From a virus (Duplodnaviria; Caudoviricetes), in IMG/VR virus record IMGVR_UViG_3300044617_001342, positions 1 to 52,749 of that record: a stretch of 52,749 nt of DNA. One strand, given 5' to 3'. Both the position numbers and the translations under genes were made by a program. The notes under the pieces were generated by a model. That model was not told the DNA's origin. It worked only from the letters and a program-made list of their open reading frames with translations, and did not search any database. Positions 35,791 to 36,413 of this stretch are shown piece after piece. Each line of letters opens with the position of its first letter. Position 1 is the first letter of the stretch.

Positions 35791-35796
35791 ATGAAT

Positions 35797-35824
35797 AGTA
35801 TACTCCTTATTTATGGTCTGTCAA
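35797..35824 (-). promoter_or_regulatory. sigma70-like promoter TTGACA-16-TATACT with nested CATAAATA
   Basis: Read directly; ATG 6 nt after -10. Confidence 0.75.
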
Positions 35825-35828
35825 ATAA

Positions 35829-35854
35829 CAAAACCCCCTTTGAAGGGGGTTTTG
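35829..35854 (-). terminator. Terminator hairpin after tmRNA
   Basis: CAAAACCCCCT-TTGA-AGGGGGTTTTG. Confidence 0.8.
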
Positions 35855-36170
35855 GGTCGATTCAGATGCGGGAGACCAAACCCCACTGCTTTAAGCAGCC
35901 ATTGCCATATAGTTGGCAATTATTTTTGCAACTGTTTATTTACGACACTTGTTACCCGTGTCGGGTATCTCCTTCTTCATTACTTTGCGCCAATCGATTC
36001 CTTTCGACCCCGGTGACCCGAAGCCTAGGACTTCGGGAAATGCCCCGCTGCTACGAGGACTTAATTCGCCGTTTTCAGAGGATTGCAGATTCTCTGACTT
36101 AGGCTAATGGAGTCGGGGGGATTCGAACCCCCGTCTTGTACGCATTTCAATCCAATATCAACAATACCAT
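35855..36170 (-). ncRNA. ssrA: Circularly permuted (two-piece) tmRNA
   Basis: Acceptor piece ends GACGGGGGTTCGAATCCCCCCGACTCCA (36108); coding piece starts GGGGTCGAAAGGAATCGA (36011); G3-U70 pair; pk1; tag ANYMAMAA* at 35917-35891; outer ends approximate. Confidence 0.9.
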
Positions 36171-36180
36171 TTTTATTTAG

Positions 36181-36263
36181 TGCGAGCGGAAGGATTCGAA
36201 CCTTCGTAGACATAAGCCAGCAGATTTACAGTCTGCCCTCGTTGACCGCTTGAGTACACTCGC
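36181..36263 (-). tRNA. trnY: tRNA-Tyr(GTA), CCA not encoded
   Basis: GCGAGTG/CGCTCGC acceptor, GCAGA-CTGTAAA-TCTGC, long variable arm. Confidence 0.95.
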
Positions 36264-36413
36264 TAAAGTCGGGCATTGAATCCTTTTTCCAGCCCTGATC
36301 AAGGTCTGGGAAGTATAGTACTAGCCCTGCGCGTTCTTCTAAGGTATCCCGCGCCCCACCTCTGATTACTGCTAGGGTATCAGTTATCCCTATACAGTTT
36401 TATAGATTGTCAG

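Follow-up and report, generated by a model that had tools for sequence, protein, structure and literature searches.

A compact, circularly permuted two-piece tmRNA gene with a structured intervening RNA in a T4-like phage

Does a phage of the T4 type carry its own two-piece tmRNA gene, and what is the long RNA that lies between the two pieces? These questions arise from a locus on the minus strand of a 52.7-kb virus record (52,749 nucleotides; this whole stretch of DNA is referred to here as the window), in which a preliminary description had proposed a circularly permuted, minimal two-piece tmRNA.

We assessed the identity of the locus with two detectors. ARAGORN reported a permuted tmRNA (tmRNA*) at 35800-36198 on the minus strand, with the tag ANYMAMAA*. 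The Rfam model tmRNA_permuted (RF04321) aligned over its full length (model positions 1-213) to 35891-36168 and scored 82.3 bits (gathering score 47; E 2.5e-14); ten relatives that we scanned scored 52-85 bits. In the calibration of this model, the one-piece tmRNAs of 151 Burkholderiales genomes reached at most 51.4 bits (one member of the set, G031, is unpublished and carries no weight in any conclusion), beta-type bacterial genes scored 105-174 bits, and the alpha-type gene of phage Melnitz scored 113.4 bits. These data confirm the initial proposal of a permuted gene and identify the locus as a genuine circularly permuted, compact two-piece tmRNA gene in a T4-like phage.

The window has an estimated completeness of 31% and a G+C content of 39%, and it belongs to an uncultured T4-like freshwater phage. 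PHROG profiles detected a T4-type gp43-like polymerase, UvsX, and gp41- and gp61-type proteins, in agreement with the T4-like assignment made earlier, and likewise thymidylate synthase, RNR, and baseplate or tail-fibre proteins. The identity of the polymerase to those of isolates does not exceed 41.6%, with T4-like cyanophages at the top of the ranking. A cyanophage identity was considered and not retained; psbA was not found in the five larger relatives. Among lake-water and freshwater metagenomes, 14 of the 24 listed runs, representing nine studies, contained at least half of the sampled words of the stretch. We detected no SmpB gene in the window or in the five larger relatives, one of which is a complete 147-kb genome with terminal repeats.

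All features of the gene lie on the minus strand and are given here in their 5' to 3' order. The acceptor piece comes first (36168-36108, 61 nt), supported by the RF04321 alignment and by covariation of its helices 1-4. It carries a GGUAU that pairs with AUACC (35968-35964) of the coding piece, a contact that covaries in two relatives (GACAU/AUGUC and GAUAC/GUAUC). The T arm, GGGGG-UUCGAAU-CCCCC (36132-36116), is followed by the acceptor 3' strand CGACUCC (36115-36109) and the discriminator A36108. The next nucleotides are UUA, so CCA is not encoded. After a 96-nt intervening segment (36107-36012, a length that we read from the sequence exactly as first described), the coding piece (36011-35855) begins with the acceptor 5' strand GGGGUCG (36011-36005), which forms a 7-bp stem with CGACUCC that includes the alanine determinant G3-U70. 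The two pieces are further joined by P2, in which UUGGCGCA (35993-35986) pairs with UGCGU(A)CAA (36144-36136) around one bulged A.

The coding piece itself is supported by the ARAGORN tag, by RF04321, and by helices 9-12. Its pseudoknot pk1 (35963-35928) comprises the stem CGACAC/GUGUCG (35963-35958/35948-35943) and the loop sequence GUAAC (35955-35951), which pairs with GUUGC (35932-35928). The tag reading frame ANYMAMAA* (35917-35891) starts at the resume codon GCC at 35917 and ends at UAA (35893-35891), the stop codon lying in the loop of the P5 hairpin (35899-35885). An upstream in-frame GCA, which ARAGORN uses to call longer tags in two relatives, is present in some members only, and a one-base indel takes it out of frame in close relatives. 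The piece ends in a 3' hairpin (35877-35855) with the stem GGUC/GACC and the invariant loop UCCCGCAUCUGAA; this stem takes 12 complementary forms, among them GGUC/GACC, UAGCCCU/AGGGCUG, and CCCGGUUU/AAACCGGG. The acceptor stem with G3-U70, P2, pk1, and the tag were thus all found where they had originally been placed, with compensatory changes in relatives.

Two structural details of the preliminary description fared differently. The helix GGAGA/UCUCC, which was thought to close the coding piece, can form, but both of its strands are invariant and never covary, and its 3' strand also fits the adjacent invariant GUGGGG as an alternative partner; we therefore found no support for it, nor, as a consequence, for the absence of pk2-4. 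The GUGGGG directly after P5 is in turn complementary to an invariant UCCCGC in the loop of the 3' hairpin. Together with that hairpin, this pairing would give the layout of an H-type pseudoknot after the tag, a candidate whose first stem shows no covariation. The gene is compact, as the term minimal implied, and "pk2-4 absent" should probably read "pk3-4 absent".

To evaluate selection on the fold, we scored 31 distinct sequences of the family with a model of 69 pairs, setting aside one sequence with a 173-nt spacer. The model was paired in 96.2% of cells, as compared with 37-44% when the 3' partners were slid, and 23 pairs changed on both sides, as compared with 2-7 in the slid versions. None of 500 shuffles matched the observed value on four of the five measures; the fifth, further pair types, carried no signal (252 of 500 shuffles). 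Helices 1-4 of the acceptor piece were 95-100% paired and contained compensatory changes, the T arm (helix 3) being 100% paired with one covarying pair. In pk1, helices 9 and 10 were paired in 95.2% and 98.7% of cells, and relatives exchange stem 1 from CGACAC/GUGUCG to CGAGGG/CCCUCG and stem 2 from GUAAC/GUUGC to GUGGU/GCUAC. Both pk1 and the stretch preceding the resume codon are conserved among relatives.

We then examined how widely the gene is distributed. Searches of IMG/VR with three independent motifs returned 37 contigs for a 25-base motif from the acceptor-piece 5' end and T arm, 75 contigs for a pk1 motif, and 51 contigs for a motif of the intervening segment, 50 of which place it in the tmRNA gene and one of which is a chance match in a G+C-rich coding region. 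Their union is about 90 contigs, a hand count of contig names. From the 75 pk1-motif contigs, 72 genes could be parsed; all 72 have the permuted order, with the acceptor part upstream of the coding part, and all 72 keep G3-U70 across nine covarying versions of the acceptor stem. The 25-base motif had no match in 185,579 bacterial and archaeal species genomes (one genome per species). In isolate phages, a distant blastn search gave 26 records, whose matches were confined to the T arm and spanned about 34 nt at most; another search was dominated by tRNA-Tyr matches. Judged by these searches, the gene belongs to a phage-only family.

The family falls outside the three lineage models of Rfam. The gene scored 56.0 bits with beta_tmRNA (RF01850; gathering score 84) in a full-length alignment, five relatives scoring 34-49 bits; 34.1 bits with cyano_tmRNA (RF01851; cut-off 70); and 19.6 bits in a partial match with alpha_tmRNA (RF01849; cut-off 50), for which the Melnitz control reached 106.7 bits. 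In the covariance-model check suggested at the outset, the generic permuted model thus scored above its gathering score, and all three lineage models stayed below theirs. ARAGORN detected the gene in 19 of 37 relatives and missed it in 18. Given that it misses about half of the tested relatives and that all lineage models miss the family, annotation pipelines can be expected to under-call such genes. We also compared 50 phage genes with 53 distinct beta-type genes of Rhodocyclaceae and allies over 61 nt of the acceptor piece and 150 nt of the coding piece. The mean identity was 47% (range 40-54%); the phage genes share 43% with Melnitz, and the beta-type genes 49%. The family is thus about as far from the beta type as the beta type is from the alpha type.

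These observations raise the question of whether the family represents a fourth, independent permutation, arisen in or captured by phages, rather than a diverged alpha, beta, or cyanobacterial copy. The subthreshold scores with all three lineage models, an identity to beta-type genes no greater than that between beta-type genes and Melnitz, the lack of motif matches in the species genomes searched, and the restriction of isolate-phage matches to the T arm favor this reading. However, beta is by score clearly the nearest of the lineage models and aligns over its full length. Furthermore, the tag end AMAA resembles the beta consensus ...FAMAA in the model line; the order of elements (5' extension, pk1, stop in the P5 loop, 3' hairpin, terminator) is that of the beta type; and the gene is broken at the helix where all known two-piece forms are broken. 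Small phage RNAs that evolve quickly can fall under thresholds, and our comparison covered two-piece genes of the beta and alpha types. We therefore regard a fourth lineage as possible yet doubtful.

Two further observations came to light in these searches. Many relatives contain, upstream of the tmRNA, a tRNA-like RNA of about 105 nt that is not present in the window; it has a 7-bp acceptor stem (GCGUAGU/ACUACGC) and a T arm (GAGG-UGCAAGU-CCUC). ARAGORN did not report this RNA in loci that end in the same ACUACGC, nor did the Rfam tRNA model in the one relative searched with it. Separately, a Dechloromonas genome (G001:C1:3974388-3974971) holds two adjacent RF04321 matches on opposite strands (159.9 and 113.2 bits), perhaps duplicated when an island integrated into ssrA.

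The intervening segment (36107-36012) proved to be a structured RNA. It is composed of hairpins A (36104-36068), B (36058-36043), and C (36037-36017), with a loop-loop contact between A and B (CUGCAA 36088-36083 with UAGCAG 36053-36048). Folded alone, the segment adopts the three hairpins as its minimum-energy structure (z -3.19). We described it by 28 pairs, namely an outer helix GCC/GGC, the three hairpins, and the six-position A-B contact, and scored 33 of 38 distinct sequences, the other five having deleted or different spacers. The model was paired in 94.1% of cells, compared with 33-47% in slid versions, and 15 of the 28 pairs changed on both sides, compared with 0-4; the measure of further pair types again carried no signal (125 of 500). 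In the loop-loop contact, CUGC/GCAG is replaced by CUGU/ACAG in two sequences, and the fifth position is A-U, G-C, or G-U in eight sequences and unpaired in 25. Rfam contained no family for the segment, with matches at the chance level of 9-14 bits only.

The segment is also optional. The spacer measures 5-6 nt in 14 of the 72 parsed relatives, 31 nt in three (a deletion form), 71-73 nt in nine that lack hairpin C, 95-99 nt in 39, and 122-173 nt in seven that carry a different RNA; the hairpin-B motif is found in 48 of the 72. The different RNA of those seven relatives mostly begins UUCGGUUAGCGGCGUGGUAGGGACACGC, and the three copies scanned had no Rfam match. We tried the idea that copies of the intervening RNA are dispersed through phage genomes, and did not keep it: our own model of the segment, R1, had a single match in the window (114 bits) and one in each of five larger relatives, always within the tmRNA gene.

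Our results show that the intervening segment is an RNA of conserved structure whose presence in the gene is optional. Because the content and length of the spacer vary among relatives, the spacer behaves as a slot, and the three-hairpin RNA is one selected cargo of it. Our best guess is either that the cuts of tmRNA maturation also free it as a small RNA or that its fold shields assembly of the acceptor stem from a long spacer. The compound proposal, that the 71-99-nt RNA is functional and exploits the tRNA-like ends of the tmRNA to be freed by RNase P and 3' trimming and that the tmRNA family is a fourth, phage-borne lineage, we consider unlikely; if true, it would describe a cargo coupled to processing, in a slot that is empty in some relatives and differently filled in others.

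The surroundings of the gene suggest how it might be transcribed. A tRNA-Tyr (GUA) at 36263-36180 (ARAGORN; Rfam tRNA, 55.6 bits) lies 11 nt upstream of the acceptor piece, adjoins the tmRNA in several relatives as well, and is probably co-transcribed with it. A sigma-70-like site, TTGACT-16-TATACT (36573-36546; 10 of 12 consensus positions, a pattern match only), precedes both and is a possible start of the transcription unit. At the other end, a terminator scan predicted an intrinsic terminator with an 11-bp stem and a U-rich tail (35854-35829), in the position of the terminal hairpin in the beta_tmRNA model alignment; it would end the tRNA-Tyr/tmRNA unit. In addition, within 36180-36169 the acceptor piece is preceded, at a distance of 5 nt, by UAAAUA, and several relatives without an adjacent tRNA have it in the same place. 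This sequence is similar to the T4 late promoter core, and transcription initiation might therefore make the 5' end in some members.

Other features close by were noted on the same strand. Directly past the tmRNA terminator, a strong sigma-70-like site (TTGACA-16-TATACT, 11 of 12; 35824-35797) precedes a very basic ORF of 57 amino acids (MPNSKQRVTARAHRKRK...; 35790-35617), the start of which is kept downstream of the tmRNA in several relatives and which had no match in Pfam, PHROG, or NCBIfam. About 1 kb downstream of the tmRNA, a 71-amino acid ORF (34888-34673) gave consistent matches to ribosome modulation factor (RMF) below threshold, with Pfam PF04957 at 22.7 bits (cut-off 27.9) and NCBIfam PRK14563 at 27.4 bits (cut-off 40; E 2e-6; profile positions 9-46 of 47). 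If real, an RMF-like protein beside the tRNAs and the tmRNA would be a second phage gene directed at translation. RMF is largely gammaproteobacterial, and the ORF would point weakly away from the planctomycete host considered in the preliminary description, for which we found no indication.

We also looked for expression in four RNA runs. RNA-library contigs of two studies, at a depth of about 5, fall on part of the coding piece, one spanning 35794-35984 with 12 differences and one spanning 35796-35946 with none. They give a weak hint of expression, and DNA carry-over is possible. No contig fell on the acceptor piece or the intervening segment, an absence that carries no weight. High RNA depth at 36194-36274 was rejected as a signal; it reflects tRNA-like matches of other organisms, the flanks being unlike those of the window.

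On this evidence, the phage very probably has a functional two-piece tmRNA gene of its own. Relying on the tag, the family, and the conservation of the identity elements, we infer the following course of processing, charging, and tagging and the benefit to the phage, assuming compatibility with host SmpB, alanyl-tRNA synthetase, and proteases. One precursor would be transcribed after tRNA-Tyr and end at the terminator. Host RNase P would cut before G36011, and the 3' end would be trimmed after A36108 and then receive CCA, the uncoded CCA implying extra host steps in maturation; the excised 96 nt would be the three-hairpin RNA. The products would be an acceptor piece of 61 nt and a coding piece of roughly 155-180 nt, which the acceptor stem, P2, and the GGUAU/AUACC contact would keep joined. 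The host alanyl-tRNA synthetase would charge this two-piece RNA through G3-U70. With host SmpB, it would enter stalled ribosomes, where translation would resume on GCC and add ANYMAMAA, a presumptive short degradation tag with the usual hydrophobic-Ala-Ala end; host EF-Tu and proteases would serve the phage tmRNA as well. In this way, the phage could keep ribosomes recycling while infection yields broken mRNAs. The earlier suggestion that the gene stands in for a host tmRNA cleaved by defence nucleases is purely speculative.

An alternative at the level of function is that of a decoy RNA, which would enter trans-translation or bind SmpB and block the host system with no rescue of ribosomes. 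There is a precedent in PMC11915505, where a tmRNA of mycobacteriophage DS6A that lacks the coding sequence is reported to inhibit endogenous tmRNA in E. coli. The tag of our gene is, moreover, unusually short, and most of its reading frame lies inside a covarying hairpin (GCCA/UGGC, GCUA/UAGC, CCGCA/UGCGG), whose helix 11 pairs in 83.9% of cells and could hinder decoding. However, all 51 unique genes keep the 8-codon frame, with its alanine resume codon and AA end. These encode 13 peptides, all of the form A......AA, which preserve the hydrophobic-Ala-Ala end and vary in the interior. The frame, pk1, and the conserved sequence before the resume codon are features that a decoy would not need, and we consider a decoy improbable.

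Still less probable is a dead relic, either a host ssrA fragment from imprecise prophage excision or an att-site remnant. Fragments of ssrA are known in prophages, according to PMC9004378, and in temperate phages, att and integrase features underlie T-arm-like matches. Against this stand the completeness of both pieces, the compensatory changes in each variable helix, the presence of the gene in about 90 contigs of T4-like phages, and the lack of the family motif in any of the bacterial genomes searched. A plus-strand protein of 103 amino acids (35791-36102), which appears in the mechanical ORF list, is the least probable of all: the intervening lengths of the 51 unique genes fall into all three modulo 3 classes (28, 15, and 8), an antisense ORF of at least 90 amino acids occurs in only one of 51 relatives (a rough count, the ORF start having been cut), and the substitutions are RNA-type compensatory pairs.

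How, then, does this two-piece tmRNA gene compare with those already known? The two-piece tmRNA of the Caulobacter type was reportedly described by Keiler, Shapiro and Williams in 2000. With generic permuted tmRNA (RF04321), our gene shares a tRNA-like domain assembled from two RNAs, a break downstream of the tag, and a P2 that joins the pieces. It differs in being much more compact than the alpha type, in belonging to a family found in phages only, and in an intervening sequence that most members conserve as a structured RNA. With the betaproteobacterial type (RF01850; Dechloromonas, Azonexus, and Thauera), it shares the order of elements, the 3' hairpin followed by a terminator, and a tag ending in A-M/I/L-A-A. 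The bacterial genes, in contrast, score 105-174 bits with RF04321 compared with 82 for the phage gene, have spacers of 26-52 nt compared with 96 nt, specify tags of 10 residues compared with 8, and encode the CCA that the phage gene lacks.

Among phages, tmRNA genes as such are no novelty. PMC9004378 reports that 402 of 18,146 phage genomes have them and that they amount to 133 unique structures; ARAGORN called 53 of these structures as two-piece, 50 of the 53 from marine or aquatic phages. That set includes pelagimyophages and the T4-like OM43 phage Melnitz, whose two-piece ssrA was described by Buchholz et al. in 2022 (PMC9004378). A tmRNA database holds 97,179 sequences, 79 from phages and 11,946 permuted (PMC11915505). 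The novelty implied at the outset does not hold: phage two-piece tmRNA genes have been published, and the present gene is a further sound example. Like those of Melnitz (MZ577097, a Methylophilales phage) and the pelagimyophages, it is a permuted ssrA in a T4-like phage that has no SmpB of its own, placed among small early-type genes or tRNAs. It resembles the Melnitz gene in having a long intervening segment (144 nt in Melnitz) and in passing RF04321. The Melnitz gene, unlike ours, is plainly of the alpha type by RF01849, is only about 43% identical to the window gene, and has an unrelated intervening segment. A glutamine riboswitch lies just downstream of it, whereas the window had no match to RF01739 or RF01704 at E <= 10 (Melnitz control, 52.8 bits). 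The 8-residue tag also sets the window gene apart from both Melnitz and the pelagimyophages. The finding leaves the understanding of how tmRNA works unchanged and widens the set of phages with their own ribosome-rescue RNA by a large, uncultured freshwater branch.

The features worth keeping are a family that falls outside the three lineage models and a spacer that holds a conserved, optional structured RNA. Elsewhere, the intervening sequences of permuted tmRNA genes can hold a tRNA-Ala gene or a repetitive element, and tRNA-processing enzymes remove them, as given in PMC11915505. As in those cases, the spacer slot tolerates inserts. The cargo here is different, being a non-coding RNA of about 71-99 nt with three hairpins, a covarying loop-loop contact, and no Rfam family. 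The spacer of a two-piece tmRNA can therefore hold a selected, structured RNA, which provides a concrete object for asking whether phages release small RNAs via tRNA-processing sites.
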